Shown here in pieces: positions 16,743 through 40,075 of a stretch of 57,337 nucleotides of DNA. Origin of the DNA: an uncultured Clostridia bacterium. GTDB taxonomy: Bacteria; Bacillota; Clostridia; TANB77; CAG-508. The notes under the pieces are model-generated. The model was not told the DNA's origin. It saw only the letters and a list, made by a program, of their open reading frames with translations, and ran no database searches. The stretch is taken from NCBI GenBank assembly GCA_947631745.1, contig CANRMM010000042.1, forward strand, positions 1 to 57,337, given 5' to 3'. Both the position numbers and the translations under genes were made by a program. Numbering within the stretch: position 1 is the stretch's first letter; each line of letters begins with the position of its first letter.

Positions 16743-17033
16743 TTATTCTATTTTTACAGAGATATTACTTCCTTTATATACTTCAATTCCGTTAGTTGGT
16801 ACTTGTTCTTTTATGATTGCTTGCTCTTTATCTATTTCTTGTTCTGTATTAATCTGTAAGTTCAATTCATATTCTTTTAGAACTTTTTCTGCTTCCTTAA
16901 CTGTCATTCCTATAATTCTTGGCATTTCTATTTTTTCTTTTATATTTTCCTCGTTTTCATTGTCTTTACTAATTTCCAAATATGGTAGCACTTCTCCTAA
17001 CACTTGTGATGCAATTGGTGCTGCCACACCACC
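16743..17033 (-). CDS. spoVD: 3' segment of the split class B PBP (end of transpeptidase domain plus one PASTA domain)
   Basis: GGVAAPIASQVLGEVLPYLE...MPRIIGMTVKEAEKVL...EQVP; aligns with the intact paralogue (AGPVVGQILKEVLPYLG); no RBS of its own; continues the 34985-36846 segment in frame. Confidence 0.9.
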   Translation of the reverse strand, partial: GGVAAPIASQVLGEVLPYLEISKDNENEENIKEKIEMPRIIGMTVKEAEKVLKEYELNLQINTEQEIDKEQAIIKEQVPTNGIEVYKGSNISVKIE

Positions 17034-17057
17034 TCCTTGGTGTATTTTAACAACACA
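17030..17057. other. Recombination (att) site at the spoVD-3' end of element B
   Basis: Predicted crossover cc at 17032-33, 10-bp spacer, arm attttaacaacaca at 17044-17057 (perfect inverse of 24300-24313). Confidence 0.8.
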
Positions 17058-17066
17058 ATTATTTAT

Positions 17067-17106
17067 AAAAGGAGAAAAGCAAGGGAATTGCATTGCTTTT
17101 CTCCTT
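17067..17106. terminator. Terminator at the edge of element B, insulating the spoVD 3' fragment
   Basis: 14-bp stem aaggagaaaagcaa/ttgcttttctcctt with flanking A/T runs. Confidence 0.75.
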
Positions 17107-17121
17107 GCTTTTTAAAATGGC

Positions 17122-18159
17122 TTATTCGGCCGGGAAATACTCACTTGTGCAGAAATATTGATTATATATATGTCTATATATTGGGCCTTGAATAAATTCA
17201 GCTTGAAATACCAAATTTTTAGGTCCGATTGGTCCATCCCTTAAAAGTTCTTCTGCCCATTCATAAACTTCTTGCGGTACTTCCAATTGCCCACTTAAAA
17301 TCCGATCTCTTGTTATCTGCGCATAAGCATTACCTGTAAAAATAATACTCTGCATATCATCTCCACAAATTCCTAGTTCCAGCAAATGTAATAGAACACT
17401 TCCACAAAGTTTGTGTGCTTCTTTTGCTTCTTCGTAGTTAATTTGGTCAGTGTATTCACTCAAATAAATCAATACTCCTTCTTCGGCATACATAAGGTCA
17501 CCTAGGAGTTTGACATCGTCTGCTGTATAATTAAAATACGGTTCTATTGCTTCTGGAGTATCCGATGGCTTTACTGGTACATCTTCTTCTAGAACGTTTG
17601 ATGGCTCTATTGTCATGTCTTCATCTGGAACGTTTGTTGGCTCTGCTGGCATCTCTTTCTCTGGAGCATTCGTTGGATTTGCTGGTGCATTTTCCTCTGG
17701 AGTGTTCGTTGGATCTACCGGTGCATTTTCCTCTGGAGCGTTTGTTGGATCTGCCGGGGCATTTTCCTCTGAAACGTTTGATGCTTCTTTGTGGTCTCTG
17801 ACGTTTTCAGAGTCTTCGTTCTGGTCAACCGGATATATTCTTGCTGAATCGTCCGTATTGTTGATTGTGTTAACATTAGTGGAGGGTACAGTGTTGGGGG
17901 CTGTGGTCGGAACAGTGATAGTGTCGGCGAGGCTTTCGTCTGCTGTAGCGTCAGTGGTAATGGTGCTGTTGCTGTTGTTCTCTGAGTCTTCCTTGGAAGA
18001 TGTTACTGTTTTGATTCTATACACCATCATGGCTGTAGATAACATCGTAATCACAAGCAGGATTGCGATGCCGCTGTATCCTTTGCTTTTTGTCTTTTCC
18101 CTCACTCGCTTTCCCTTGTACCGCTTAAAACGGTTATTTCTCTTGCTGTCCTTCGTCAT
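17122..18159 (-). CDS. Membrane-anchored protein with repeat stalk and C-terminal SleB/Hydrolase_2-like domain
   Basis: Basic N-terminus plus TM helix, T/P-rich linker, YTADDVKLLGDLMYAEEG resembling the SleB catalytic-Glu helix; visibly GC-richer than its neighbours. Confidence 0.55.
   Translation of the reverse strand: MTKDSKRNNRFKRYKGKRVREKTKSKGYSGIAILLVITMLSTAMMVYRIKTVTSSKEDSENNSNSTITTDATADESLADTITVPTTAPNTVPSTNVNTINNTDDSARIYPVDQNEDSENVRDHKEASNVSEENAPADPTNAPEENAPVDPTNTPEENAPANPTNAPEKEMPAEPTNVPDEDMTIEPSNVLEEDVPVKPSDTPEAIEPYFNYTADDVKLLGDLMYAEEGVLIYLSEYTDQINYEEAKEAHKLCGSVLLHLLELGICGDDMQSIIFTGNAYAQITRDRILSGQLEVPQEVYEWAEELLRDGPIGPKNLVFQAEFIQGPIYRHIYNQYFCTSEYFPAE
17554..17769 (-). repeat. Six degenerate 36-bp (12-aa) tandem repeats, EENAPxDPTNxP
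   Basis: EENAPADPTNAP / EENAPVDPTNTP / EENAPANPTNAP / EKEMPAEPTNVP / DEDMTIEPSNVL / EEDVPVKPSDTP. Confidence 0.85.
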
Positions 18160-18340
18160 TTTTCTTTTCTCCTTTACTTTTGTTAGAGCTCATTTGTGCT
18201 CTATATATTAGGATGACATAATGTCTTCCTTTTTCCATTATACTATACTTTTTGAATTTAGGCAAATTTAATTGCTTAGTATTTTTCTTTTTAATCATTT
18301 ATATTTGTTAATAATGTTTTTTATTATATAGTTTATAGCT

Positions 18341-18380
18341 AAAAGATTCCTAAATTATGTATTATAATTTAGGAATCTTT
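18341..18380. terminator. Intrinsic terminator
   Basis: aaaagattcctaaattat/ataatttaggaatctttt inverted repeat after the 18386 gene. Confidence 0.75.
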
Positions 18381-18385
18381 TTTAC

Positions 18386-21300
18386 TTATTTTACTTTCTT
18401 TAATCCAATTAGTATTAATTTCATATCTGCCATATCTCCTATACCACATTCTTCATTTTTATCAAAGTCTGCAGCATTTGCTTTTGTTTTTGATAATTGT
18501 TCAACTTTAATAAGGTGTAACTTTAATCTAGCTAGGTCATTTACTGTAATTTTTCCGTCTCCGTCTATATCTCCTGTTACTTCAAGAGTAAATTGTGAAT
18601 TATCTGCTAATTTCATAGTTGTATCTGTAGTAATAAGGCTGTCATCAGTTAATACATTTCCTCGTGAATCAACAAATACAATATCTTGTTCTCCTTCTAT
18701 TTCTACATTTTCTTTGAATTCTTTTACTGTTGTTTTTGGAAGAATTTGTGATATATATCCTTCTTCTACTTTATATTTTTCTGTTTTTACTTCTTCTGGT
18801 GAACCTGGTATTCCTGTATTATTTTGTGAGTTTGGATTTCCCATTCCTGTTCCAATCCAGTTAACGCTTGCTGTTACTTCTCCTATATTTCCTGCTTTAT
18901 CTTGTAGTTTGAATGTAAATTCTCCATTTTGATCAAATGTATACGTATATCCTTCTTTTCCGTCTTTATTGTTTAGTACTGTTACTTCTTCACTAGGAGT
19001 TATTTCTGCTGTTACTTCAGAATCAATTCCACTTCCTGAATGATATTCAATTGTAGCTGTTGGTGCTGTTTTATCTATCCAATCAACTATAGCTGTAGCA
19101 GTTCCTTCTTTCTTTGTTTTGTTGTCATAAAATTCAAATGTAAATTCTCCGTTTTCTTCAAATACATATACATCACTATCGTGATTTGTAATTGTTATAT
19201 CTGTACTTGGATTTACAAGTCTTGCTATAACATTTTGGTTGGTTAATTTTTGTGTGTTATATCCAATGCCTGCTGTAGGATGAGGATTTTTTGTTAAGTC
19301 TTGGTAAATATTAAACATTCTACCTGTCATAAAGCTTCCTCCACCTGCTGATGATGTTTTAGTACCTATAATTTTAATATATTGTACTGTTGGTTTGTCT
19401 TCAAATTCTATTGTTTTTGTTTCTTCGTTATTATCCCATTTTACTGTTCCAATTTCTGTATATTCTTCTCCGTCTATACTTCCTAGGATTTGACCTTCTA
19501 AGATTTTACCGTTTCCTCCACCTGCTGGTACATAATCTAATGCTGATAATTCGATTTTTCTATCTACTTTAATAATAATATATCTTTCTTGGTCTGAACC
19601 ATTCCATGCTGAATGCCATCTTGTGTTGTAGTTTCCATCTATTACGTTTACTGCTTCTCCTTTATTGCCTCCTGTTGTTTCACTAGATACTCCTGCGATT
19701 GATAGATGTGCTACTGGTACGTATTTTCTTGTTTCTGGTTGATCGTCTGCTGTAAATGTATATGTTGTTATTTCACTTGCAAGCATTGTTCCTGTTGCAG
19801 ATTGTCTTACTTGTATTGTTTTATCTCCTGTTAAATCTGGAGATTCATCTTCATAAGAAATCCATTCATCTTCATCTGTGTAACGCCATTCTGTATGTTC
19901 ATTAACTCCTACTATTCTGTTTTCTAAATCATTATTGTATAGATCTGCTAATTTCTTTTGATCTTGTATATCTATTTTAAATATATTGTTTTCATCTTCA
20001 TAACTTGTTCCGTAAATGTGAACATAAATATCATCTTCTGCATTGATTTTACTTAGTTGTTCGTCTGTTAATGTTTCTTTATGTTCTTCCTCTGGTGTAT
20101 ATGTTACATCAATCCAAGTTTGTTTTCCATCTATACTATAATCCCAATGAATTCCTGAATCATCATAGTTGCTTGATAATACAATTTTTCCTGCATCTTC
20201 TCCATCAAATGAAAATGTTGCTAAGTCTTTGTCCATTTGTCCTAATAAATATTTTGCTACTGTTTGTGTAATACTTGGTTGATATACTTTAGTATTATCC
20301 TCCCATGTAGTTCCTTCTGTTAATGTATTTATTTGTAATACTGTAAATTTAAATGAGTATTCTGTTGATTTTAGCATTGGTTTAATTAAATTTGATAGTT
20401 GATACATTGGTAATGGGAAGCATTTTAAATTTTCACATATATCTTCTGCTAATTCATAATACTTTTCTTCTGATGTATTTTCATCTGCTTTATATAAATT
20501 AATTAAGCCATACCATGCATCTATATTAATTGGTTCAACTTCTAATGCTTTTCTATAAATTTCTTCTTGCTTTTCTGGATTGTCTTTATATATATCTGCT
20601 GTCATAATGATTTCTTCAGCTTCTTCGTAGCTTTCATAGTGATTTAATGCTTCTTGTGCTAATACAATATATGTTGCACAGTATCCTTCTGCATAGCTAT
20701 CACTACCCCAGCCTAAAGGCATTCTAACACTTAATTTTTCTGTTTTTCCAGATAATGCCCATCCACTTACGTCATTATCTATTGTCCAATATCCATTTCC
20801 ATCTTTATCTTTTCTATAATAAATTAATGCTGCGTGTCCTGGCTGACTAATTACTGATGATGGTGTTCCATGAACTCCACGTATATTAGAACCTATTTTA
20901 GAGATACCTCCACAAACGGCTCCTCCTTCGATGTTCATCCATAATTTATTAACACCTGGTCTAAATGTTACACCATATCTTAAAAAGTCATATTTATCAT
21001 CCCATTCTTCTTTCTTTGATTCATCATGAAATTCTGGTCTACTATAATCTGGGTCTAAATATTTCATATATGGATGTGGTTGTAAGTATTTTTCTTCTTC
21101 GTTTGGATGATCATTTATATATTTTTGTGTATATTCATTTAACCATACAATTTCTTCGTCATCTATGATGTTATTCATAACGAAACGCATTTCTTCTACT
21201 TTTAAGCTTTCAAACCATGGTGTATGGTCTTGATTTTTAGAAACTACGAACTTATCGTTTGCATGTAAATCTTTAAAAATTTCATAACGAGTTACAGGAT

Positions 21301-22366
21301 CTGATTGGTTTTCTGGGCTTGTTGTATCCATCCATAATGCTACTTGTGCAGAGTGTGTTAATGAAATTGTTATCATCATCTTTTTATATAATTCACCATA
21401 TACTGTACCATATTTTGTTTTATCTGTTCTTTCTAAATCTGCTTTATGCTTTTTATATAATTTTGCTAAAGCTTGTATTGATGATACGTAGTTTCCATCT
21501 GGCTCTCCACCTAGAACATAAAGACGTAAATTATCTACATCTGACATTAACCATCTTAGTGCTATTTCGTTATCTTCATCATATCTTGCTACAGCTTGTA
21601 AAATATCATAATCTGCTCTTCTTACTAATTCTCTTTGTAATAGTGTTAGTTCATGTTCACTTGTCATATCATCTACATCATAATTTTTTAGTTCTTTGTC
21701 ATATTCTTCTAATGTTTTTATGAAATCAACTTCTGATTCTTTATCTTCTACATATCCATCTTTAATTAGTTTAGCATCAGCGTAGATTGCTTCATCATAC
21801 CATTCTGCCCACCAATCTTTACTGTTGCTACTAGCTTCTAACTTTAGATATTTTACCCCTTTTATATTAACTTTAATTGGTTGTGCTTCACTCCATCCAT
21901 AGAGTACACCTGTTTCTGTTTCCTTTTCCCAATTCTTTCCGTCATTAGAAACGTATATATAGAATTTAACACCTGTATTAAAGTAGTTACTTTGTTCTCC
22001 AATGTCTACTCCAACATAAGCAGTAAAATAGTCAAAATCATAATCACTTATATTGTATACAACTTGTGATGATGCCCAAGCAGTAACTCCTTTTAAGAAT
22101 ACTTCTGGCTTATCATTTACTTTTAATGTGATTAATTTGTCACTATCATTTTTGTCTAATTTGATTAAATGTCCACTTGCTGCTTTTGAATTTTCTTCAT
22201 CATACGGAATATCTGACAAATACATTCTTTGATTATTGGTTGCTTTAACTGATGTGTAGCCTATTCCTTGTATTCCTAAAAATACGGCTAATACAAAGGT
22301 AAGGCAAATTGCTATTTTGAATAATAAGTTTGTCTTATCTTTTTTTATTTCTATATTTTCTTTCAT
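18386..22366 (-). CDS. Large secreted protein: NPCBM/NEW2, F5/8 type C (CBM32-like), Ig-like and dockerin-like domains
   Basis: Signal peptide; YLSDIPY...FTAYVGVD; IDGNYNTRWHS; WIDKTAPT; C-terminal GDIDGDGKITVNDL...ADFDKN duplicated Ca-binding motif. Confidence 0.75.
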   Translation of the reverse strand: MKENIEIKKDKTNLLFKIAICLTFVLAVFLGIQGIGYTSVKATNNQRMYLSDIPYDEENSKAASGHLIKLDKNDSDKLITLKVNDKPEVFLKGVTAWASSQVVYNISDYDFDYFTAYVGVDIGEQSNYFNTGVKFYIYVSNDGKNWEKETETGVLYGWSEAQPIKVNIKGVKYLKLEASSNSKDWWAEWYDEAIYADAKLIKDGYVEDKESEVDFIKTLEEYDKELKNYDVDDMTSEHELTLLQRELVRRADYDILQAVARYDEDNEIALRWLMSDVDNLRLYVLGGEPDGNYVSSIQALAKLYKKHKADLERTDKTKYGTVYGELYKKMMITISLTHSAQVALWMDTTSPENQSDPVTRYEIFKDLHANDKFVVSKNQDHTPWFESLKVEEMRFVMNNIIDDEEIVWLNEYTQKYINDHPNEEEKYLQPHPYMKYLDPDYSRPEFHDESKKEEWDDKYDFLRYGVTFRPGVNKLWMNIEGGAVCGGISKIGSNIRGVHGTPSSVISQPGHAALIYYRKDKDGNGYWTIDNDVSGWALSGKTEKLSVRMPLGWGSDSYAEGYCATYIVLAQEALNHYESYEEAEEIIMTADIYKDNPEKQEEIYRKALEVEPINIDAWYGLINLYKADENTSEEKYYELAEDICENLKCFPLPMYQLSNLIKPMLKSTEYSFKFTVLQINTLTEGTTWEDNTKVYQPSITQTVAKYLLGQMDKDLATFSFDGEDAGKIVLSSNYDDSGIHWDYSIDGKQTWIDVTYTPEEEHKETLTDEQLSKINAEDDIYVHIYGTSYEDENNIFKIDIQDQKKLADLYNNDLENRIVGVNEHTEWRYTDEDEWISYEDESPDLTGDKTIQVRQSATGTMLASEITTYTFTADDQPETRKYVPVAHLSIAGVSSETTGGNKGEAVNVIDGNYNTRWHSAWNGSDQERYIIIKVDRKIELSALDYVPAGGGNGKILEGQILGSIDGEEYTEIGTVKWDNNEETKTIEFEDKPTVQYIKIIGTKTSSAGGGSFMTGRMFNIYQDLTKNPHPTAGIGYNTQKLTNQNVIARLVNPSTDITITNHDSDVYVFEENGEFTFEFYDNKTKKEGTATAIVDWIDKTAPTATIEYHSGSGIDSEVTAEITPSEEVTVLNNKDGKEGYTYTFDQNGEFTFKLQDKAGNIGEVTASVNWIGTGMGNPNSQNNTGIPGSPEEVKTEKYKVEEGYISQILPKTTVKEFKENVEIEGEQDIVFVDSRGNVLTDDSLITTDTTMKLADNSQFTLEVTGDIDGDGKITVNDLARLKLHLIKVEQLSKTKANAADFDKNEECGIGDMADMKLILIGLKKVK

Positions 22367-22486
22367 GGTTACTCCTCCATTCTCTAATATTCCTATAGTA
22401 TTATATCATAAATAATCAAGTTTTGTACATATTTTCCAGTATTTTTTTACATTTTTTCTATATTTTTGTTAATCTTATTTTTTTAT

Positions 22487-24118
22487 TTAATTTTTAAATT
22501 TAAAATGTATAATAATTTTTTTGTTCTCGCATATTTCTATTGATTCTATTAGTTCTTCTATTATTGTTTTATCTAGTTTTATAATATTTTTTTGTTTTTT
22601 AAATTCTTCTATTTCTTTCATTTTTTCTTGTTTTATTTTTATTTCATTTTCATTTTCTTTTTCTATATTTTCAATAATTATTTTTAATTTTTCTATTTCT
22701 TGTTCGTAGTCTTTTTTATATAATATATATTCTTCTTTTGTTATGTCATTATTTTTCCAGTCTTGATATAGAGCTTTTTTTAAATTTTGTATTTTTTCTA
22801 TTTCTCTTTGCTTTTCTTTTAGAATGCTTATATTGTGATTTGCTATATCTGGAGTTTCTTGTAATTTTTTTACTATTGACTCTACATTTGCAAGGTTAGT
22901 AATTTGTTCTTGTATTGTTTGTAATACTGCCTTTTCTATCAGTTCTAACCTAATCGTATGTTTTGTACAAAGTTCATGAGATTTTTTTTGATATGTACTA
23001 CATATATAATATTGATATATTGTTCCAATTTTGTTTTTACTTGTTTTTTTGTTCATAGCTTTTCCGCAGTCTTTACATTTTATTTTTCCTGCCCATAAAC
23101 TTAGTTTTCCGTCTTTTTGTATTCTGGTATCTTTTTTTCTTATATCTTGTGCTTTTTCAAATAATTTTTTATCTATAATTGGTTCATGCATATTTTTTAC
23201 AGTAATCCATTCTTCTTCTGGTATTTGTTCTAATTTGTGAATTTTATAGCTTTTCACCTTACGCTTTCCTTGGGTTATATTTCCTATATATACATCATTT
23301 GATAATATTTTTCTTACTGTTGAAGTTGTCCATGAATAATCTTCTTGTTGAATATTATAGTTTTTATAATTTTGTTTTAATATTTTTCTTTTATATCCTG
23401 TTGGATTTAAAACTCCTATATCATTTAGTTTGTGGCATATTGATAGACATCCCATTCCTTCATTAACATACCAATTAAATATTTTTCTTACAATTTGAGC
23501 AGATTCTTTATCAACTATTAATTTGTGATAATCTTCTTTGCTTTTTATATAACCATAAGCTGGAAATGCTCCTACATATTCTCCTTTTTTCTTTCGTCCA
23601 TTTAATGCACTTCTTATTTTTAGTGAAGTATCTCGACAATATTCGTCATTTATTAAGTTTTTAAATGGTAGAAGAATTGTATTTGTACTATTAGGATCTT
23701 TATAACTATCTATATTGTCATTAATTGCGATAAATCTAATATCAAATAATGGAAATATTTGCTCTATATAATTTCCTACCTCAATATAGTTTCTGCCTAA
23801 TCTTGATAGATCCTTTACCAAAATACAATTAATTTTTCTATTTTTCATATCTTCTAACATTCTTTGAAATCCTGGTCTATTGAAGTCAGTTCCTGTATAT
23901 CCATCATCAATGTAATGGTCATAGAACTCTAAATCTTGATGTTCTTTTATATATTCTTGTAACAATGTTTTTTGACTTGTTATACTGTTGCTTTCTTTTT
24001 TTTCCTCTATACTATTATTATAATCTTCTTGTGATAGTCTTATGTATTCTGCAACTTTCCATATCTTATGGTCTGTTATTTTTATATTTTTTTCATATTT
24101 AGATTTTCTTCCTGCCAT
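22487..24118 (-). CDS. Large serine recombinase (LSR-B)
   Basis: YIRLS catalytic Ser, DDGYTG, KDLSRLGRN, AYGY, HEPII, CKDCG...C zinc ribbon, coiled coil. Confidence 0.95.
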   Translation of the reverse strand: MAGRKSKYEKNIKITDHKIWKVAEYIRLSQEDYNNSIEEKKESNSITSQKTLLQEYIKEHQDLEFYDHYIDDGYTGTDFNRPGFQRMLEDMKNRKINCILVKDLSRLGRNYIEVGNYIEQIFPLFDIRFIAINDNIDSYKDPNSTNTILLPFKNLINDEYCRDTSLKIRSALNGRKKKGEYVGAFPAYGYIKSKEDYHKLIVDKESAQIVRKIFNWYVNEGMGCLSICHKLNDIGVLNPTGYKRKILKQNYKNYNIQQEDYSWTTSTVRKILSNDVYIGNITQGKRKVKSYKIHKLEQIPEEEWITVKNMHEPIIDKKLFEKAQDIRKKDTRIQKDGKLSLWAGKIKCKDCGKAMNKKTSKNKIGTIYQYYICSTYQKKSHELCTKHTIRLELIEKAVLQTIQEQITNLANVESIVKKLQETPDIANHNISILKEKQREIEKIQNLKKALYQDWKNNDITKEEYILYKKDYEQEIEKLKIIIENIEKENENEIKIKQEKMKEIEEFKKQKNIIKLDKTIIEELIESIEICENKKIIIHFKFKN

Positions 24119-24134
24119 ATTTATCCCCCTTTAT

Positions 24135-24284
24135 TTATAGTATTTTTAATTTAAGTATTTCATATAGACAATCCTCTATTTTTTTATTATTTTTACTATA
24201 AACTACTTCCACTTGAATATTTTCTGTTTTTAATGATTTCTTTGTTTCTGTATTTTCTGAGGATTTATGCTTTAATTTTTTCAT
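24135..24284 (-). CDS. 49-aa ORF upstream of LSR-B, candidate directionality/accessory factor
   Basis: Not in the ORF track; GGGAGG RBS; MKKLKHKSSENTETKKSLKTENIQVEVVYSKNNKKIEDCLYEILKLKIL. Confidence 0.7.
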   Translation of the reverse strand: MKKLKHKSSENTETKKSLKTENIQVEVVYSKNNKKIEDCLYEILKLKIL

Positions 24285-24299
24285 TGTTAACCTCCCTTG

Positions 24300-24357
24300 T
24301 GTGTTGTTAAAATTCCATTATCACCTCCTTGTGTTACCAGTTTCTTATTGCAGTAAT
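24300..24357. other. Back-to-back att sites of elements B and A enclosing an 8-bp spoVD micro-segment (24324-24331)
   Basis: tgtgttgttaaaat -10bp- cc tcct tg -12bp- cttattgcagtaat; left arm pairs with 17044-57 (14/14), right arm with 34959-72 (12/14). Confidence 0.8.
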
Positions 24358-24368
24358 AACAAGAAATC

Positions 24369-24413
24369 AAAAAAAATCTATTTACTAATTAGTTTTATAG
24401 TAAATAGATTTTT
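24369..24413. terminator. Terminator at the end of element A, directly upstream of the orf49-LSR-B unit
   Basis: aaaaatctatttacta/tagtaaatagattttt stem; T-run on the - strand. Confidence 0.75.
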
Positions 24414-24429
24414 ATACTTTTTAAATATT

Positions 24430-25992
24430 TTACATTAAATTAATTTCTCCAAAAACATACCATTTGTCTTCTGTTTTGCCTTCGCTTCCTAATAAATATG
24501 TTGGTTTCTCATCATCGTCATTTTTATATAATCCTACTGCTAATTTATATTGTCCAGCATTTATCTCATTAAAATTAATTGATATTTTCTCATTTGATAT
24601 TATATCTGGTTGCCAATTTTTAGGATTTATATTTGTTTTATATTTTTTTATTAGTTGATTGTTTTCATCAAGAAGTCCTATATAAACACTACATGGTTCG
24701 TAAATTGGTGTAATTCCATCATTCTTAAAATCTAATATAATTTCTGCATCTTCATTTATAGCTACTTCATTTTTATAAGATACTTTCTTTAGTCTAAAGT
24801 AATATCCTAGTCTATTTGCAAGTTCCTTGCAATATTCTTGATTGTCATCCGCATACCATTTTTTATCAAGTTCAATATATGATGGTTTTGATATTTTAAT
24901 TGCTTCTTCTAATTGTGTATTAAACTGTTCTTTTGTATATTCTCCATAACTTTTAGCATATTCAAGTACAATTGGAAGTTTTCCATAAGCTTTTGCACAG
25001 TAATCTAAGCCGTTTGTATATGTTATAACTCCGTCTCTTCTTAATGTAACTCCTTCATCAATTAATTCTTCATAAACAGTATTAAATTTTTTTTCTCCCC
25101 ATGGAATTACTAAAAGAGTGTCTGGAAAAGCATTTATATATGGTCTTATATATTGTTCTTTTAGGAAATCTGGTTCTATTCTATCTTTCCAAGTATAATC
25201 TTCATCTACATTTCCTTCTTCATCTAAAGCATTTAATCCAAATAAATGTTGTTCACCATAATTTCCATATGATCTAATATCAATAAAGGCAATATCTGGA
25301 TCTCCATTATATTTTTCTCCTAATGCTTCTATGAATTTATCTAAGTATGTTAAAAAAATTTCATCTTCCCAATCGGGAATACATTGACCATTTTGAGATT
25401 CACGAAACTGTGCACCCTCATTAAAAATAAACTCTGGTGTTACATATCGTTCTGATGAAGATGAATTAGCACACATTACTCCAAAAGCAAATTTTTTATT
25501 ATATTGTTTGCAGTCTGCAATAGCAGCATCTATTAAATCAAAATTATAGCTATCTTTTGATGTTTGTATCTCTGTCCAATCAAATCTAGTATATACAACC
25601 TCTGACATATCTAAAATCTCTGGTGAAACTGAATTAAGTAGATTTTTTCCATCATATGTTAGTCTTCGTGCATAAAAAACAAATCCTTTTCCTGGGTTAA
25701 TTAGAACTTCATTATTATCTTGTATATTAACTGTTACCATACCATCTATTTCTTCATTTTTTGATCTGTTACCAGCAATTTCTGAATCTATTATGTTTAT
25801 TCCTGCTTTTTCCATTTCTTCTTCTTCTCTTGTTGCTTCATCTGTTAGTTCATCTGCTTTTTCTGCCATTGTTATGATACCGTTTTCTCCCCATACAGCC
25901 ATTATACTAATAGTAGCTAAAATTATAAGTATTATAATAGTTATGACTAATGCTATTAAAGTGATTCCTTTGTTTTTCTTTTTTGTTTTCAT
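24430..25992 (-). CDS. Type IV prepilin-like leader fused to a glycoside-hydrolase-like (DUF4832/beta-galactosidase-like) domain
   Basis: KKNKG|ITLIALVITIIILIILA leader; NPGKGF, RFDWTEIQ, GNYGEQH, LGYYFRL, NDGITPIY. Confidence 0.7.
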   Translation of the reverse strand: MKTKKKNKGITLIALVITIIILIILATISIMAVWGENGIITMAEKADELTDEATREEEEMEKAGINIIDSEIAGNRSKNEEIDGMVTVNIQDNNEVLINPGKGFVFYARRLTYDGKNLLNSVSPEILDMSEVVYTRFDWTEIQTSKDSYNFDLIDAAIADCKQYNKKFAFGVMCANSSSSERYVTPEFIFNEGAQFRESQNGQCIPDWEDEIFLTYLDKFIEALGEKYNGDPDIAFIDIRSYGNYGEQHLFGLNALDEEGNVDEDYTWKDRIEPDFLKEQYIRPYINAFPDTLLVIPWGEKKFNTVYEELIDEGVTLRRDGVITYTNGLDYCAKAYGKLPIVLEYAKSYGEYTKEQFNTQLEEAIKISKPSYIELDKKWYADDNQEYCKELANRLGYYFRLKKVSYKNEVAINEDAEIILDFKNDGITPIYEPCSVYIGLLDENNQLIKKYKTNINPKNWQPDIISNEKISINFNEINAGQYKLAVGLYKNDDDEKPTYLLGSEGKTEDKWYVFGEINLM

Positions 25993-26062
25993 TTTTTCTC
26001 CTTTATCTATTGTACAATTATTATTAATTGTATTATATATAATTTTATATTTCTAGCAAATT

Positions 26063-27583
26063 TTAAATAAAAGTAAATTTTTTATTATAAGCAATTTCTA
26101 TTTTATTTGCTTGATATATTTCTATTTTGCTTATCATTTCTTTTAGGAATTCATTTGTTATATATTTTCCTTTTTGAAATTGAAATACAATTTCTCTTAT
26201 TTTTTTCTTATCTAAATTTTGTTTATTTAATTCTTCAATTTGTGTTTTGTATTTTTCTATTTTTTCTTTTGCTTCCATATATCTTCTTTTAAATTCTTCT
26301 ATTGTTATATTACTTTCACATTTTTCTTGGTATAAAGTTCTTTTTCTTCTTTCAAGTTTTTCAATTTCTTTTTCGTATTTTTTTATTTCTTGCATATTTT
26401 TATCATTGTTTGTATAATAGTTTATTAGCTTGTTTTCGACTTTATCTGTTTCAATAGTATTTAGTATTTTTTTTACTTCATTTTCTATTATTGTATTTAA
26501 GTCTTTTTCTTTAATGCAATTTCCATTTTTGCATTTTTTCTTATAAAAATAATTACAAGTAAATTTTGCTCCATTACATAAATATTTTTGTTTATCTGAT
26601 GATTTATAGATTTTGTATTGTAGCTTTTTTTTACAATGTCCGCAATATACTAAATCTTTTAATAAAAATTCATATTTTATTTTTTGATTACCTTTCTTTT
26701 TTGCTTTTATCTCTTGTACTTTTTCATATATTTTCTTTTCAATAATAGCTGGATGAGTATGTTCTTTTATAATCCAGCTATCTTTATTTGAGTTTTTTTT
26801 ACATTCCTTTTTTATATAGTTTGTTTTATATTTATTCATTATTGTATTTCCTATATAAAATGGATTTGATAATATGTTATTTACTTGTTCCGCTTCCCAT
26901 TTTTTACTTGCATTTTTTAATTTCATATATCTACTTGGATTTTTTATTTTTTTTTGATTTAAATATTCTGCAATGTCATTTCCGGTTTTTCCGTCTATAT
27001 ACATTTCATATATTTTTTTAATATTTATTGCTACCTTTTTATCTATTATTATTTTATGTTTATCATCTGGTGCTTTCTTATATCCATAAGGAGCATAATA
27101 TTCTACAAATTTTTTTTCTTCTTTTATAGCTTTTTTATTTGCTTTTACTTTTTTTGATATATCTGCAATATATGCTTGATTTGCTATTCCTCGAAGCATT
27201 ATACTATCATCTATTTCATATCTTTCTCCACTATCTATAAATTCTGTTACTGATATAAATCTTATATTATTATCTGGGAAAAATACTTCTGTATACCAAC
27301 CTGTTTTATTTTTATCACGAGTTAATCTGCTTATATCTTTTACAATTACCATATTTATATTTCCTCTTGATATATCCATTATCATTCTATTTAGTGCAGG
27401 TCTTGAATTTAATATTCCTGAATATCCATTATCTATATATTCTTCTACTATTTTATATCCTTTTTTTATAGCATATTGTGTTGTAATTTGTCTTTGAGCT
27501 TCTATGCTATTATTTTCTTCATTATGTTCCTTTGATAATCTTAAATATATTCCAGCTCTATATTCTCTCACATTAAGCCACAT
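26063..27583 (-). CDS. Large serine recombinase (LSR-A2)
   Basis: YLRLS, DNGYSG, KDISRLTRD, PYGY, HPAII, CGHC zinc ribbon; overlaps the stop of LSR-A1. Confidence 0.93.
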   Translation of the reverse strand: MWLNVREYRAGIYLRLSKEHNEENNSIEAQRQITTQYAIKKGYKIVEEYIDNGYSGILNSRPALNRMIMDISRGNINMVIVKDISRLTRDKNKTGWYTEVFFPDNNIRFISVTEFIDSGERYEIDDSIMLRGIANQAYIADISKKVKANKKAIKEEKKFVEYYAPYGYKKAPDDKHKIIIDKKVAINIKKIYEMYIDGKTGNDIAEYLNQKKIKNPSRYMKLKNASKKWEAEQVNNILSNPFYIGNTIMNKYKTNYIKKECKKNSNKDSWIIKEHTHPAIIEKKIYEKVQEIKAKKKGNQKIKYEFLLKDLVYCGHCKKKLQYKIYKSSDKQKYLCNGAKFTCNYFYKKKCKNGNCIKEKDLNTIIENEVKKILNTIETDKVENKLINYYTNNDKNMQEIKKYEKEIEKLERRKRTLYQEKCESNITIEEFKRRYMEAKEKIEKYKTQIEELNKQNLDKKKIREIVFQFQKGKYITNEFLKEMISKIEIYQANKIEIAYNKKFTFI

Positions 27584-29129
27584 CCTTTAAAAAGTCATAT
27601 TTATAATATATATATATTTTATTGTCTTTATCTATTTCAATATCATATATAATTTCAGATACTATATCTAGATTCAATTTTTCCATATTTAACAATTTTT
27701 CTAATAGTTCATTTATCTTATTTTCTTTTATAGATGATTGATTAATTTGTTTCTTCTCTAATATTTCTAACTCATTTTTTATTCTGTTTCTTTCATTCCA
27801 TTTTTCTTTGTAATATTTTCTATAATCCTCTTCATCTAATAATTCCTGTTTAAAATCTATATATAATGTTTTAATTTCTTTTTCTATTTTTTCTAATTCT
27901 TGATTTAATAATTCTTGTTCTTTTTCTATTTTGCTTATTATTATTTCGTTTTGTTGTGTTGTTAATATCTCTTTTACTTTTTGGGGATTTATTATTTTCA
28001 TTTTTTCTTTTAGATTATTACAAATAATCTTTTGAAATGCTTCTTCATCTATCCCTTTACTTCCTTTAATGCATTCCTTTCCCTGATATTTTTTTAATCC
28101 ATTTAAGCAACATAATTTTCTTGATTTTAATTCTTTTGTATTATTTCTTTTATACTCAACTTTTAATGTCATTTTAGCTCCACATTCTTTACACTTTACC
28201 ATTCCATTTAGTTTCCATTCATGTTTTTTTCTTTTTATTGATTTATTAATGTTTATTATAGCTTGTACTTTATTAAAAAGCTCTTCTGTTATAATTGCTT
28301 CGTGAGTATTATATGCTACTTTCCATTCTTCCGGTGGAATATACTGCCTTTTTTTAGATTTATAACTTAAGTTTATTCTTTTTCCATATTCTGTATGGCC
28401 TAAATATACCTTATTTGATAGTATCCTTTTTATTGTTTCTTCTCTCCATTTATACTTTATTTCTACATTATTGTTATTATTTGGGCTTGGTATATTATCT
28501 TTCTGTAATTCGTTTATTATATCTATTATTTTTTCTCCTTTACTATATTCTTCATATATTCTTTTAACAATTCTTGCTTCTTTATTATTTATAATAAGTT
28601 TATGTTTATTCTTATTTGATTTTTGATAGCCATAAGGGGCCATTGATCCCATAAACATTCCTTTTTCTTTTCTTGTCCATATACTTGATTTTACTTTTCT
28701 TGAAATGTCTTTACTATACCAGTCATTGATGAGAGTTTTAAATTGTATCATATCATTATTTGCATTTTTTGTTCCTGTATCAACATTATCTAAAACTGAT
28801 ATATATCTTATATTTCTCTCTAAAAAATATATTTCTATGTAATAATTTGCCTCGAAACTATTTCTTGAGAGTCTTGATAGGTCTTTAGTTATGATACAAT
28901 TTATTGTTCCTTTTTCTATGTCTTCTAACATTCTTTGAAAATTTGGTCTGTTTGTGTTAAGCCCTGTATAGCCATCATCTATATAATTATCTACTATAAA
29001 AAATTCTTCTCCTAATTCTTCTACTTTTCTTTCTATTATATTTTTTTGACTTATTATACTATCGCTTATATCTTTATCGTCATCTTCCTGCGACAGCCTT
29101 AAATATGCTGCTACTTTATATTTTTTCAT
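27573..29129 (-). CDS. Large serine recombinase (LSR-A1)
   Basis: YLRLS, DDGYTG, KDLSRLSRN, PYGY, HEAII, CKECG. Confidence 0.95.
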   Translation of the reverse strand: MKKYKVAAYLRLSQEDDDKDISDSIISQKNIIERKVEELGEEFFIVDNYIDDGYTGLNTNRPNFQRMLEDIEKGTINCIITKDLSRLSRNSFEANYYIEIYFLERNIRYISVLDNVDTGTKNANNDMIQFKTLINDWYSKDISRKVKSSIWTRKEKGMFMGSMAPYGYQKSNKNKHKLIINNKEARIVKRIYEEYSKGEKIIDIINELQKDNIPSPNNNNNVEIKYKWREETIKRILSNKVYLGHTEYGKRINLSYKSKKRQYIPPEEWKVAYNTHEAIITEELFNKVQAIININKSIKRKKHEWKLNGMVKCKECGAKMTLKVEYKRNNTKELKSRKLCCLNGLKKYQGKECIKGSKGIDEEAFQKIICNNLKEKMKIINPQKVKEILTTQQNEIIISKIEKEQELLNQELEKIEKEIKTLYIDFKQELLDEEDYRKYYKEKWNERNRIKNELEILEKKQINQSSIKENKINELLEKLLNMEKLNLDIVSEIIYDIEIDKDNKIYIYYKYDFLKDVA

Positions 29130-29305
29130 AATTCAACACCTCTATTTTGAGATGTATATATTTGTGAAATTAAATACTTACATATTACATCATATAATTT
29201 ATCTATATTCTGTGCATTATCGGTGCATTTTGTTATTACAGTATATTTTTTATTATCTATTTCATACGTTTCTATGATGTGCTTTTTTTCTTTATTTTGT
29301 GTCAT
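29126..29305 (-). CDS. 59-aa ORF coupled to LSR-A1 (TnpW-like), candidate directionality factor
   Basis: Not in the ORF track; AGGAGG RBS; MTQNKEKKHIIETYEIDNKKYTVITKCTDNAQNIDKLYDVICKYLISQIYTSQNRGVEL; ATGA overlap with the recombinase start. Confidence 0.75.
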   Translation of the reverse strand: MTQNKEKKHIIETYEIDNKKYTVITKCTDNAQNIDKLYDVICKYLISQIYTSQNRGVEL

Positions 29306-29329
29306 ATATGTACCTCCTATTTCTTTTTT

Positions 29330-29358
29330 AAAATATTAGAGTTGTACTAAATTTATGA
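29330..29358 (-). promoter_or_regulatory. Putative sigmaE (mother-cell) promoter for orf59-LSR-A1-LSR-A2
   Basis: TCATAAA-14 bp-AATATTTT, close to the sigmaE consensus TCATAtt-14-CATAnnnT; AT-rich, so a chance match is possible. Confidence 0.45.
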
Positions 29359-29391
29359 CTATTTTTTTGTTATAAATATAGCTTTTATTGC

Positions 29392-29433
29392 AAAATAAAA
29401 TTCTAATTGAATATCAAAATCAATTAGAATTTT
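29392..29433. terminator. Terminator between the metal operon and the recombinase operon
   Basis: aaaattctaattga/tcaattagaatttt stem. Confidence 0.7.
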
Positions 29434-29455
29434 GTTTTTGGTTGATAAATATATA

Positions 29456-30286
29456 TTATTTATTATTTTTTGTATGAATTAGATAATAGGCTTCGAGTGT
29501 TATATAAAGAATTGATACTCCTATTAGGATTCCAATTATAATTTTATCTTCTGTTTTTAAAACTATAGGATATTCTTTTCTTAGTTCTTGTTTTAATTCT
29601 TTTATAGAATAATCACTTTTATTTTGTATTTCAAAAAAGTCAGACTTAAATTCACCTAAAACTTTAATTGTTTTAAAAGCTTTTACATCTGTAATGCTAA
29701 TTTCGCCTTGTTCTATTTTCATATTTCCATCAAAGCCAAACTTTGAAATGTCTATATTTTTTTCAGATAAATAAAATGGTGCTTTTATATTAACTTCTAT
29801 TCCATATGGAATTATATTGATGTCATCAGATAAAAAATCAAAGCAAAATCCTTGTTTATCTGTAAATTGCTTTACAAATGACTTTATAGTATATTTTATT
29901 TCATATACATGGAACTCAGACTTTTTTCCAGTCCAATTAATTACTATCCCCTCTTTATCTTCTACAAAGAATTTATTTGTTCTTTCACTCTCTGTTAATA
30001 TGTTCCAATCTGGTTCGTATGTATATTGTTCATTTCCTGTTTTTTCTTGAATAGTGATATTGGTTATTTGATTGATTGAAATGTTAGGAATATTTCTGTA
30101 ATATGTTGAATTATTAATTTCTGTAGTTGTCCATTCTTCTGTAATTTCTGCATCACCGTTTTCTTGAATATTTGCTTCTATTGTTATAAATTCTATAGAA
30201 TCTTGTAAATCAGCAAAGCTTTGGGGAGGTACTAATAAAGTTGTTAAAACGATAAAAAATATAATAAAAATTAATTTTTTTCTCAT
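29456..30286 (-). CDS. DUF2207-like exported protein with C-terminal TM helix
   Basis: Signal peptide; IEANIQENGDAEITEEW...YEIKYTIKSFV; TAATG overlap with the ATPase. Confidence 0.6.
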   Translation of the reverse strand: MRKKLIFIIFFIVLTTLLVPPQSFADLQDSIEFITIEANIQENGDAEITEEWTTTEINNSTYYRNIPNISINQITNITIQEKTGNEQYTYEPDWNILTESERTNKFFVEDKEGIVINWTGKKSEFHVYEIKYTIKSFVKQFTDKQGFCFDFLSDDINIIPYGIEVNIKAPFYLSEKNIDISKFGFDGNMKIEQGEISITDVKAFKTIKVLGEFKSDFFEIQNKSDYSIKELKQELRKEYPIVLKTEDKIIIGILIGVSILYITLEAYYLIHTKNNK

Positions 30287-32151
30287 TATTTTCTACTTCC
30301 CTTCCATTTTAATAGTAATGCTGAGTGAATTATAACGGCAACAGAACCACAATTGTGCACAATAGCTCCTTGCATTGGTGTAAGAATTCCTAACATTGAA
30401 AGTGTAACAAATACAACATTAATGCATAATGAAATAATTAAATTTATACGTATTGTTTTCATTGTCTTTTCAGATAAGTCAATTAAGTATGGTATTGTTT
30501 CTATTTTATCACTTATTAAAACAATATCTGCTGCATCTATTGCAATTCTACTTCCAAACTCTCCCATTGCTATACCAATATCTGCATTTTTTAGTGCAGG
30601 CGCATCATTTATTCCATCTCCTACCATACATACGGTTTTACTTGTAGTTTTTAAATCATCAATTATATTTAGTTTATCTTCTGGAATACATTCAGCATAA
30701 TATTTTTCAATTCCAGAAATATTAGCAATATTTTTAGCAGTTTGTTTATTATCTCCTGTTAATAAAATTGCATCAATTCCTTTTTCTTTAATTTGTGATA
30801 TTGTTCCTATTATTTCTTGTTTTATAGTATCTTCTAATGTTATGAAACCAAGTAGTTTTTCATTTTTGGACATATATACTATTGTACAACCTTTTTGAGT
30901 ATATTTTTCTATTTCTTTTCTTGTTGATTCACTTAGATTAATTCCATATTCTTCTAATAATTTTTCATTTCCTGCAAGAATTTTATCGTCTTTAATAAAT
31001 GCAGAAATTCCTTTTCCTAATTGTAATTTAAAATTAGTAATTTCTAATTGAGGAAATTCAATCTGATGTTCTCTTGCATACTTTACAATTGCTTTTCCAA
31101 TTGCATGTTCTGATTTACTTTCAACTAGTGCTAGTAGTGAAAAAAATTCTGTTTCTGAAACATTAGAATCCAAACATATAATATTTGTTACATCTGGTCT
31201 TCCATAAGTTAAAGTTCCAGTCTTATCAAAAATAACGGTCTTTGTTTTTCCTAAAGTTTCTAATACTTCTCCATTTTTTATTAAAACTCCTTTTTTAGTT
31301 GCATTTCCTACTCCTGCCATTATTGCTGTAGGTGTTGCTAAAATTAATGCGCAAGGGCAGAAAACAACTAAAATACTTATTCCTCTGACCATCTCTCCAG
31401 ATATTATCCAAGTTCCAATAGATAATAAAAATGCAATGATAACAAGAACAGTTGCCCATTTATCTGTTATTCGAATTACTTTTGCTTTCTTTAAATCATT
31501 TTTTTGTACCAAATTAATTAATTTTTGCAAAGAGCTGTCTTCCATATTTTTTGTAGCTTTCATATCGAAAGAACCTAATTGGTTAATAGTTCCACTATAT
31601 ACTTCATTACCTATTGTTTTATCAATTGGCATGTGTTCACCTGTCATAATAGCTTGATTTACAGATGTTTCTCCTTTTATAATTATACCATCTACTGGAA
31701 TGGTTTCTCCTGGGTTTACACGAACAATCATTTCTTCTTTTACTTCATTTGCAGGAATTATGATTTCTTTATTTCCTTCTATTATTCTTGCAGTATTAGG
31801 TAATAATTTTAATAGCTGATCTATGCTGTTCTTGGTTTTCTTGGCAGTTATATTTTCTAATATTTCTCCTAATTCCATTATGAATGCTACTTCTCCTGCT
31901 ACAAAAATAGCATTAATATAAATAGAAGCTATTAAAGCCAGAGAAACTAATACACCTGCTCGAATATCAAAACGAGTTATTAGTCCTATTATAGCATCTT
32001 TTAAAATTGGAGTTCCGCATAGAATAACAGCTACCCATGCAATATCAATTGTACTGTTAATTATGTTAAAAAAGCTTGCAATTAAGCATATTCCCGATAT
32101 AATAACATATATTATTTTTTGATTATCTTTGTCCAATAAAAAATTCTTCAT
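30286..32151 (-). CDS. Heavy-metal P1B-type ATPase without N-terminal HMA domain
   Basis: CPCALILATP, DKTGTLT, LLTGDN, GDGINDAP. Confidence 0.93.
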   Translation of the reverse strand: MKNFLLDKDNQKIIYVIISGICLIASFFNIINSTIDIAWVAVILCGTPILKDAIIGLITRFDIRAGVLVSLALIASIYINAIFVAGEVAFIMELGEILENITAKKTKNSIDQLLKLLPNTARIIEGNKEIIIPANEVKEEMIVRVNPGETIPVDGIIIKGETSVNQAIMTGEHMPIDKTIGNEVYSGTINQLGSFDMKATKNMEDSSLQKLINLVQKNDLKKAKVIRITDKWATVLVIIAFLLSIGTWIISGEMVRGISILVVFCPCALILATPTAIMAGVGNATKKGVLIKNGEVLETLGKTKTVIFDKTGTLTYGRPDVTNIICLDSNVSETEFFSLLALVESKSEHAIGKAIVKYAREHQIEFPQLEITNFKLQLGKGISAFIKDDKILAGNEKLLEEYGINLSESTRKEIEKYTQKGCTIVYMSKNEKLLGFITLEDTIKQEIIGTISQIKEKGIDAILLTGDNKQTAKNIANISGIEKYYAECIPEDKLNIIDDLKTTSKTVCMVGDGINDAPALKNADIGIAMGEFGSRIAIDAADIVLISDKIETIPYLIDLSEKTMKTIRINLIISLCINVVFVTLSMLGILTPMQGAIVHNCGSVAVIIHSALLLKWKGSRK

Positions 32152-32325
32152 TTATTCTTCATCCTTACTATATATAATTCCATTATGACTATGCCCTACA
32201 ATTTGTGTTAATCCACTTGTATCTTCTAAGTTTTTTTCTGAATTATCCCATATAGCTAAATATAGCAAAGTTCCTATAATTCCTATAGTTAATAAAAGTG
32301 ATAAGATTTTTTTGCATTTTTCCAT
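32152..32325 (-). CDS. 57-aa single-TM protein with HSH motif
   Basis: Not in the ORF track; AAGGA RBS; MEKCKKILSLLLTIGIIGTLLYLAIWDNSEK...GHSHNG...; stop abuts the ATPase ATG. Confidence 0.65.
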   Translation of the reverse strand: MEKCKKILSLLLTIGIIGTLLYLAIWDNSEKNLEDTSGLTQIVGHSHNGIIYSKDEE

Positions 32326-32342
32326 TTCTTTATCCTTTCTTT

Positions 32343-33065
32343 TTATCTTTTACTTAATGATAGTGGTAACTCTAATCCATTGTTTTCTAGTAAATCTTTA
32401 TCTTCTAAAATTGTTTTTGTTTGTCCTTGAGCTATTATTTTTCCATTTGCAATTAAAATTACTTTACTACAAGTATCATAAATCAAATCCAAATCATGTG
32501 AAGCTATTATTTTAGTCCCTTTTAAAGCTTGTACTAAATAAATAAATTTTCTTCGATTTTTTGGATCTAATGCAATTGTTGGTTCATCAAATATTAGTAT
32601 ATCTGGTTCCATAGATAGAACAGTTGCAATTGTCACTAATTTTTTTTGGCCTCCAGACAATTGAAAAATTGGTTTATCTTTTAATTCTTCTATTCCAACT
32701 TTTTGTAAACTTTCTATTGTTCTTTTATGTACTTCTTCTGGTGAAAATTTATAATTTTTCGGTGCAAATGCAACATCTTCATAAACTGTAGGCATGAATA
32801 GTTGATTGTCTGGGTCTTGAAAAACATATCCTATTTTTTGACGTATTTTGGTTAAATTGTCTTTTTGCACTTTTAAATCGTCAATAGTAATTTCTCCTTG
32901 AGTATTCAACTCTAATCCAACTAGTAATTTTAATATTGTTGATTTTCCTGCTCCATTGGCGCCAATTAGTCCAACTGTTTCACCATCATTTATTGAAAAA
33001 TTAATGTTTGAAATAATTGTATTCTTTTTATCATAAGAAAACGAAACATTCTCTACTTTTATCAA
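32343..33065 (-). CDS. cbiO: ECF transporter ATPase (CbiO/NikO)
   Basis: GANGAGKST, FQDPDNQLF, LSGGQKK, FDEPT, SHDLD. Confidence 0.9.
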   Translation of the reverse strand: MIKVENVSFSYDKKNTIISNINFSINDGETVGLIGANGAGKSTILKLLVGLELNTQGEITIDDLKVQKDNLTKIRQKIGYVFQDPDNQLFMPTVYEDVAFAPKNYKFSPEEVHKRTIESLQKVGIEELKDKPIFQLSGGQKKLVTIATVLSMEPDILIFDEPTIALDPKNRRKFIYLVQALKGTKIIASHDLDLIYDTCSKVILIANGKIIAQGQTKTILEDKDLLENNGLELPLSLSKR

Positions 33066-33077
33066 TTTTTTTCTCCT

Positions 33078-34881: not shown

Positions 34882-34958
34882 TGTTTTTTCCTCCTATTTT
34901 ACTTTCTTATAAGTATATCATATATAGCTTAATTTTTCCATATATGTTTTTTATCTTG

Positions 34959-36965: not shown

Positions 36966-36971
36966 CTCTCT

Positions 36972-40061: not shown

Positions 40062-40075
40062 TATTTTCTCCTATG

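Follow-up and report, generated by a model that had tools for sequence, protein, structure and literature searches.

How can a gene that has been split into three pieces, the middle one only a few base pairs long, be put back together? The question is raised by contig CANRMM010000042.1 of assembly GCA_947631745.1, from an uncultured Clostridia bacterium, of which we analyzed positions 1 to 57,337 (57,337 nucleotides, hereafter the window). Here a class B penicillin-binding protein (PBP) gene resembling spoVD is cut in two by 17,947 bp, made up of two mobile elements side by side, designated A and B. We propose, with a probability of roughly 70%, that A and B are a tandem of independent integrative elements, not of phage type, each with its own large serine recombinase (LSR) system and attachment (att) site, and that both would be excised to restore the gene.

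The interrupted gene belongs to a dcw cluster that reads mraZ, rsmH, ftsL, the class B PBP gene, murE, mraY, all on the minus strand, as are the parts of the two elements and their att sites described below. Its 5' part (34985..36984), with rsmH and ftsL upstream, carries the Pfam domains PBP_dimer and Transpeptidase. This part is native down to a CA dinucleotide at 34986-34985, and the called open reading frame (ORF) extends to 34960, inside element A. The 3' part (16743..17031) carries one Pfam PASTA domain and is followed by murE and mraY.

Three junctions and a restored reading frame

At the middle junction (24300..24357), the right attachment site of A (attR) overlaps the left attachment site of B (attL). 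Read along the minus strand, it consists of an arm, ATTACTGCAATAAG (24357-24344), a 12-nt spacer, CA (24331-24330), AGGA (24329-24326), GG (24325-24324), a 10-nt spacer, and a second arm, ATTTTAACAACACA (24313-24300). At the far end of A, attL (34959..35008) comprises a gene half-site, CA at 34986-34985, a 12-nt spacer, and the arm CTTATGGAAGTAAT (34972-34959), while at the far end of B, attR (17010..17057) comprises the arm TGTGTTGTTAAAAT (17057-17044), a 10-nt spacer, GG at 17033-17032, and a gene half-site; the gene-side limits of both sites are approximate. The original prediction, made from the letters of this DNA and a list of its ORFs, had described the middle junction as two att sites sharing a scrap of gene, in the layout arm-12-CA-AGGA-GG-10-arm, and every base it quoted is found on the minus strand where it was placed.

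Each half of the junction pairs with an outer end. Joined to 34959-34986, it yields arm-12-CA-12-arm, and on recomputation the outer arms match in inverted orientation at 12 of 14 positions, as had been claimed; any 14-nt window is that symmetric by chance with a frequency of 1.35e-4, estimated from 200,000 random window-position pairs. Joined to 17032-17057, it yields arm-10-GG-10-arm with an inverted match of 14/14, again as claimed, a level reached by 0 of the 200,000 random pairs. Both products thus have the geometry of attP sites of about 50 bp, with spacers of 12 and 12 nt around CA for A and of 10 and 10 nt around GG for B, and the composition of each half, an inner 12 or 10 bases plus a 14-nt outer arm, is consistent with the published description of LSR half-sites. 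Directional serine recombination needs a non-palindromic central dinucleotide, and CA and GG are both non-palindromic.

Because the attL and attR of A have only CA in common, the crossover of A is fixed at that dinucleotide. The attL and attR of B share a common core of 10 bp here, and of 13 bp in genomes that carry B alone, so the crossover of B is not placeable by sequence alone. Its location at the GG of the symmetric center is supported by arm spacing: at every place where both arms could be read, exactly 10 nt separate each arm of B from the same GG, namely in four genomes that have the two ends on a single contig, in G018, where they fall on two contigs, and at a B-to-B junction in G265. 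If B does cross over at this GG, the gene remnant between the elements is the 8 bp CA-AGGA-GG (24324..24331), of which 4 bp are unique to it, as was originally proposed; the stretch identical to the native gene is a little longer, 10 bp (CAAGGAGGTG, 24331-24322), and to that extent the earlier count needs amending. Measured from crossover to crossover, element A (24332..34984) is 10,655 bp and element B (17034..24323) is 7,292 bp, sizes that add up, as predicted, to the total offset of 17,947 bp.

When the three gene pieces are joined through the six bases AGGAGG, they form a frame of 2,295 nt encoding 764 amino acids, without an internal stop. The restored junction encodes GEGGHQGGGVAAPIA, the motif of uninterrupted relatives, and its DNA is identical to theirs across the site at seven loci, so that the frame anticipated at both crossovers is borne out by intact genes. 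Uninterrupted genes were tallied within the genus only. Across the site, the DNA of these intact congeners reads GGxGAxGGxGGxCAyCAAGGAGGxGGxGT and encodes the conserved motif GEGGHQGGGVAAP, with CA in the His-Gln codons and GG six bases downstream. In silico removal of A and B restores an intact gene, one of the properties expected of sporulation gene-intervening elements.

Elements A and B, alone and in tandem

If A and B are separate entities, each should be encountered without the other. We compared 38 genomes of the genus and a sample of 401 genomes of the family, from 50 genera, and both kinds of genome were found, the search having been suggested along with the original prediction. Within the genus, the gene is broken at the same spot in G019, G009, and G008, while in G013 it is broken with different arms and in G018 its parts lie on two contigs; in G042, the 3' gene part occurs at a contig start, next to a B-type right arm. 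Junctions in G019, G009, G008, and G018 pass from native gene flank into a B-type arm. The closest relative, G019, has a 31-kb version of B at the same site, its LSR-B 70% and its NPCBM gene 77% identical to those in the window, and shows no sign of A. By contrast with these B-only loci, G053 has the arrangement A arm, 8 bp, B arm on a 10.5-kb contig, preceded by relatives of three genes of the A recombination unit described below, s59, LSR-A1 (76% identical), and LSR-A2 (70%), and followed by the NPCBM gene.

A search pattern for the left end of B was found in 54 of the 401 family genomes, representing 20 genera; the reversed control pattern gave 0 matches. Among the 55 sites so recognized, native gene stands on the left in 48, an A-type right end in 6, and a B-type right arm in one, G265. 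That genome appears to hold two different B elements in tandem, whose left ends agree at only 94% over 105 bp. One contig (L215, C97, about 220-275) has, immediately past the 3' end of a recombinase gene, a B-type right arm followed by the core and a B-type left arm, and a second left end is found at the gene junction (L216, C53, about 12374-12478). The arrangement resembles a tandem more than it does a circle.

Close relatives of LSR-A1, 60-76% identical, mark A units in 16 genomes, counting this one. Nine of the sixteen have an A-only right end, in which the arm is followed by CAAGGAGG and then by native gene. The remaining seven are in tandem with a B-type end: this genome (G000), G053, G217, G324, G238, G143, and G254, the last with a variant arm. 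The junction of A, 8 bp, and B thus recurs in six further genomes belonging to five genera. The left junction of A keeps the layout CAy CA TnnAGGTG nnnn yTTATGGAAGT in all six genomes where it was read, and a strict pattern for the attL of A occurs in 8 of the 401 genomes, with 0 control matches. Even so, the left arm of A had no match with three or fewer mismatches in G053, G001, or G019; the contigs of G053 break off at both gene junctions. An exact-pattern scan for the right end of A proved too strict, with one real match (G053) among 15 on genome contigs and none among 75 on metagenome contigs, and the A-only genomes were located afterwards, through the recombinase protein.

The locus in G254 (L162, C15, 1-10250) is more elaborate still. 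A normal A left junction is followed by LSR-A1, a partial LSR-A2, s59, a second LSR-A1-like gene, an A-type right arm, CAAGGAGG, a variant B-type end, and a relative of LSR-B (75% identical). Three units may be arrayed here.

On a maximum-likelihood tree of LSR-A1, the tandem state requires four changes, at least two of which are forced by well-supported branches; for example, the A-only unit of G119 is sister to the tandem unit of G143 with support of 100/97. Because each element occurs alone, and because the tandem state is interleaved on this tree, the genomes support the view that A and B are separate entities that have joined or parted repeatedly. The A-only, B-only, and tandem genomes likewise support the claim of the original prediction that two LSR systems recognize overlapping but different targets. 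There is a hint that A and B co-occur beyond chance, with an odds ratio of 5.5 (p = 0.003), or 4.7 (p = 0.009) when this genome is left out, although the relatives being counted are not independent.

Might A and B instead be one composite element, which exits in a single step by recombination between the attL of A and the attR of B, leaving the middle junction as a relic? A direct join of the outer gene parts is in frame, two residues shorter, and the tandem is present in several genera. The two outer sites, however, have unrelated outer arms and different dinucleotides, CA versus GG, and serine recombinases are not known to religate mismatched cores. The one-step product would also lack part of a motif unchanged in seven of the seven intact relatives read. 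Since, moreover, A and B are each found alone and the middle junction is conserved rather than decayed, we regard a composite as very improbable.

A different doubt concerns the assembly, in which the tandem could be a chimera of A-carrying and B-carrying strains. The genome is indeed metagenome-assembled (1.16 Mb in 48 contigs, about 80% complete, with a guanine plus cytosine (GC) content of about 28%), and the four public runs that contain this DNA are all contigs of one rabbit-gut metagenome sample, probably the source sample. But the overlap between two such strains at the join would amount to just 8-10 bp, which is not enough for an assembler to connect them, and in six other species the same contiguous junction was assembled independently. 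A chimera is hardly credible.

Recombination units and cargo

What would move the two elements? Element A encodes, besides its cargo, two recombinases, LSR-A1 (27573..29129, 518 aa, Pfam Resolvase and Recombinase) and LSR-A2 (26063..27583, 506 aa, likewise recognized by Pfam), which are 32% identical by BLASTP. Element B encodes s49, a 49-aa protein that is its first ORF (24135-24284), LSR-B (22487..24118, 543 aa, Pfam Resolvase, Recombinase, and Zn_ribbon_recom), an NPCBM protein, and a 345-aa protein. LSR-B shows 37% identity to LSR-A1 and 30% to LSR-A2. The catalytic resolvase domain of an LSR is present in all three recombinases, with PF00239 E values of 7e-21 for LSR-A1, 1e-19 for LSR-A2, and 3e-20 for LSR-B, and alignments place the Y-x-R-L-S serine motif near each N terminus. 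All three also match PF07508. The match to PF13408 is strong in LSR-B, weak in LSR-A2, and uncalled in LSR-A1, which nonetheless has four invariant Cys columns (313, 316, 341, and 353) among 17 aligned copies; DBD1 and the zinc-ribbon/coiled-coil region expected of the class are thus accounted for. LSR-A1 is intact in 17 of 17 aligned copies. From these features, the recombination machinery of A and B looks functional.

Two adjacent, distantly related LSR genes in one element recall CcrA and CcrB of the staphylococcal cassette chromosome (SCC). Unlike LSR-A1, which is never broken, LSR-A2 is broken in several genomes. Membership in the CcrAB type itself was considered and rejected, the NCBIfam CcrB model giving 114-134 bits where the cut-off is 900.

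The gene s59 (29129..29305), which encodes a protein of 59 aa, overlaps the start of LSR-A1 and precedes it in 16 of 16 A units, at 46-76% identity. It matched no Pfam family at E values up to 1, and assignment to RecX was rejected, at 17.5 bits against an NCBIfam cut-off of 351. A predicted complex of s59 with residues 180-518 of LSR-A1 scored 0.72, the best control scoring 0.00, and the three model runs showed at least 94% contact agreement and a predicted local distance difference test (pLDDT) value of at least 73 for the partner. In calibration, 58 of 80 solved complexes attained the mark, as did 2 of 110 mismatched pairs, counts that apply only approximately here, since the complex was predicted from alignments that we built ourselves. 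The predicted contacts of s59 fall on LSR-A1 residues 360-393 and 467-496, in helices flanking the coiled coil, and on the C-terminal strand at 502-515. They resemble those described, in the available portion of PMC12286644, for verified directionality factors, which are predicted to sit at the junction of DBD2 and the coiled coil and often add a strand. On the strength of this model, s59 is a candidate directionality factor for A.

Upstream of s59 lie promoter-like boxes, GTCATAAAT, N12-13, TAATAT (29333..29359), found in the same place in 15 of 16 genomes. Boxes of the same form, GTCATAAAT N12-13 TAATAT, also occur 76 nt upstream of spoIVA in this genome, and of the eight strict matches genome-wide only those at s59 and spoIVA precede genes. 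This is a lead, from sequence comparison, that the recombination unit of A may be switched on with mother-cell genes. A generic sigma-70 promoter scan was uninformative, returning 104 sites where 119.5 were expected.

Each element has a terminator-like hairpin just inside its right end. That of A (24372..24413; 16-bp stem followed by a U run) has a predicted energy of -15 kcal/mol and a z of -4.0, and that of B (17069..17106) has -18.6 kcal/mol and a z of -4.2. The pattern fits A and B each being a modular, self-contained unit with its own terminator inside the right arm.

The Pfam families in the cargo of A are CbiM-PDGLE, CbiQ, an ABC ATPase, a P-type ATPase, a DUF2207 protein, and a DUF4832 protein. 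The cargo of B consists of a 1,326-aa NPCBM/F5_F8_type_C/dockerin protein and the 345-aa protein. No phage or conjugation family was matched by Pfam among the ORFs of A and B that were scanned. NPCBM/F5_F8_type_C proteins, 45-77% identical, are recurrent cargo in both A-type and B-type elements (L042, L151, L155, L158, L035, and window 18386-22366), while the recombinase units are constant; cargo appears to be exchanged between recombinase units. The ORF for the 345-aa protein (window 17122-18159) has a GC content of 41%, against about 28% around it, matches no Pfam family, and encodes a repetitive middle rich in Pro, Asn, and Glu; over the C-terminal 138 residues, the protein shares 66% identity with the last ORF in the G019 element.

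Proposed excision, sporulation, and related systems

From this anatomy a route to gene restoration can be proposed. A would cross over at the CA of the His-Gln codons and B at the GG six bases downstream. Either element could occupy the gene alone, and the later arrival would have used a hybrid target, half native gene and half the end of the resident. In the tandem, the right half-site of A keeps 8 of its 12 inner native bases and the left half-site of B keeps 6 of its 10; in both, the outer segment is foreign. Restoration would take two conservative excisions, attL by attR of A and attL by attR of B, each carried out by the element's own recombinase together with a small directionality factor, for which s59 is the candidate in A. 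Because the centers of the attR of A and the attL of B are 6 bp apart and the sites are about 50 bp long, the geometry would not allow joint occupancy, and we infer that the excisions are sequential. After either one, the remaining element would regain a fully native half-site. By analogy with the elements known as skin, SPβ, and gin, excision would occur in the mother cell during sporulation; the chromosome is discarded there, and the elements would stay in the germ line. That the spoVD-like gene is expressed in the mother cell is an assumption taken from Bacillus subtilis.

Several findings weigh against this proposal, beginning with the identity of the gene. Its 5' part scores highest with the NCBIfam model spoVD_pbp, at 526 bits where the cut-off is 688; an intact ortholog (L003) scores 572 and a paralog in the window (42242-44536) scores 541, both likewise below 688. 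Copies of the gene with frameshifts or stops are seen in congeners, both split (G019, G013, and G018) and unsplit (G015 and G020), and these could be decay or errors in metagenome-assembled genomes. In 3 of 16 genomes, a break at about residue 243 divides LSR-A2, and one more genome has a partial copy. The promoter-like boxes are not enriched genome-wide, with 8 strict matches against 7.85 in shuffled sequence, and are absent upstream of spoIID and spoIIIAA; we therefore do not take them for a signal shared by mother-cell genes at large. Kinship of s49 with s59 was rejected at an hhalign probability of 0.2%, which leaves s49 the directionality candidate for B by position only.

Two details may be recorded beside these. 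In G019 (L033/L034, C7), the 5' gene part aligns in two frames one base apart. The break in LSR-A2, from one frame into another, falls at the same place, about residue 243, in L150 (G163), L154 (G318), and L155 (G324), which belong to different genera; possible causes are a frameshift common to the three, a slippery site, and an artifact of sequencing.

Because the three spoVD_pbp scores lie below the curated cut-off for the SpoVD equivalog (TIGR02214, at least 688 bits), the gene is called spoVD-like and not SpoVD. The label rests on the best match, on synteny, and on the single PASTA domain. A SpoVD-like role is argued for by the position of the gene between ftsL and murE and by the fact that its interruption is tolerated in dozens of species. 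Bacillus subtilis has one PASTA domain in SpoVD and two in PBP2B. Here the split gene has a single PASTA domain, and the paralog at 42242-44536, a class B PBP about 50% identical to it, aligns over the entire two-PASTA PBP2X model. The paralog probably serves vegetative division, which would account for growth not depending on the split gene. Upstream of this paralog lies an ORF of 2,072 aa (window 45159-51377), and genes for a Fic-domain protein and a sortase lie between mraZ and rsmA (ksgA) (window 39471-41200). The host itself looks like a spore former, judging from open genes for Spo0A, SpoIVA, SpoVAC/EB, SpoIID, and SpoIIIAA in its genome.

Some of the adverse findings would be expected if A and B were ordinary elements that use the gene motif as a safe landing site, with excision not linked to sporulation and with hosts that either lack a normal cortex or rely on rare stochastic loss. 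The cargo of both elements is metabolic and carbohydrate-binding rather than developmental, several congeners have damaged copies of the gene, and the boxes lack enrichment. Yet B-type ends occupy this site in 54 of 401 genomes, core sporulation genes are intact in the present host, and the detached 3' fragment is stop-free over the aligned stretch here and in all six other congeners in which it is detached. Of 16 genomes, 15 retain the boxes before s59, and these match the ones before spoIVA. Furthermore, the studied elements that split mother-cell sporulation genes are, in the available text of PMC4191935 and PMC10747680, all excised during sporulation. We consider the landing-site explanation unlikely, while granting it appreciable weight.

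A bleaker possibility is that this lineage has a dead gene with immobile, fossil elements in it. It could draw on the broken LSR-A2 of some genomes, on the relatives of LSR-B in G009 and G018, which align in two frames, and on the stops in the gene copies of some congeners. Against it, the three recombinases, s59, and both gene fragments are all open in the present genome, and conservation of the att arms extends to species in which the element proteins show no more than 63-76% identity. Tandem and single states, too, interleave on the recombinase tree, which needs repeated precise gain or loss. We judge fossil elements to be quite improbable, and prefer the reading of two excisable elements in tandem.

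If both elements leave, in what order would they go? The gene s49 starts 15 nt past the left arm of B, and the terminator of A lies about 85 nt upstream of it; no obvious promoter for s49 and LSR-B was seen in the tandem state. Once A had gone, these genes would sit directly behind the 5' gene part, which suggests the order A then B. A more speculative extension makes the tandem a two-step switch, in which A leaves first, by way of its spoIVA-like promoter, and B follows, an ordered cascade that would delay cortex synthesis. Since s49 and LSR-B begin just behind the terminator of A, so near the left arm that a separate promoter would not fit, A would have to leave first; its exit would both repair the gene-side half-site of B and put s49 and LSR-B under the promoter of the spoVD-like gene. 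The excess of A with B, an odds ratio of 4.7-5.5 among relatives that are not independent, would then reflect the dependence of B. Because other B elements have different layouts, any such promoter dependence would be specific to this genome, and we hold the two-step switch to be doubtful.

Where do these elements belong among known systems? Sporulation genes described as split include sigK, spsM, spoVFB, gerE, and yabG in the accessible part of PMC10747680, and spoVFB and spoVR in that of PMC4191935. The portion available of bioRxiv 10.1101/2022.02.25.481979 reports sigK split in 15 genomes and gives spoVD only as a conserved cortex gene. Full-text literature searches found no description of a split spoVD, although supplementary tables might list one. 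The nearest counterpart is gin, in gerE of Bacillus cereus ATCC 10987 (GirC, GirX; PMC5595907, as far as its available text goes), which is likewise not a prophage, splits a sporulation gene, and carries a serine recombinase unit. For gin, reconstitution of the gene by excision during sporulation is described, whereas here we infer excision; and gin is a single element in one gene, whereas here there are two unrelated recombinase units with sites 6 bp apart, several kilobases of cargo, and tandem arrays. The elements skin (sigK; SpoIVCA), SPβ (spsM; SprA/SprB), vfbin (spoVFB), vrin (spoVR), and yin (yabG) are, in the same partly available sources, prophages or relics of prophages, one per gene.

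Several recombinase elements in one developmental gene, all of which must leave the chromosome of a terminal cell for the gene to be restored, are known from the nif genes of heterocysts in Calothrix NIES-4101, where the recombinases are mostly serine recombinases (PMC11249958, in the part available). The nif gene pieces described there are widely separated and tens to hundreds of codons long, whereas here the piece is 8-10 bp and the att sites overlap. Tandem accretion of a phage and an integrative and conjugative element (PMC13651849, available in part) likewise places two elements head to tail at one locus. That process, as described, reuses the site of one integrase, which the B-to-B junction of G265 resembles; the A-to-B junction differs, with two recombinases and different crossover dinucleotides. 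No account of two distinct serine recombinase systems whose sites overlap, leaving a remnant of a few bases, emerged from the literature searches. We class the arrangement, on its sequence features, with skin, SPβ, and gin, with unusual geometry.

For recombinase biology, the locus offers a natural case of two orthogonal LSRs with overlapping targets whose centers are 6 bp apart, and each LSR must work on a site in which the other half has been replaced by the end of its partner element. This raises questions about the half-site requirement of serine integrases at attB and about mutual exclusion between neighboring sites. LSR-A with s59, and LSR-B, each with a defined site of 50-54 bp, are candidates for recombinase toolkits. 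For the organisms themselves, the proposed reading would add a gene of cortex synthesis to the short list of sporulation genes split by excisable elements, and the frequency of B-type ends, in 54 of 401 sampled genomes, indicates that the phenomenon is common in this family of uncultured gut clostridia. It also raises the question of whether two selfish elements may have been chained into an ordered developmental switch.

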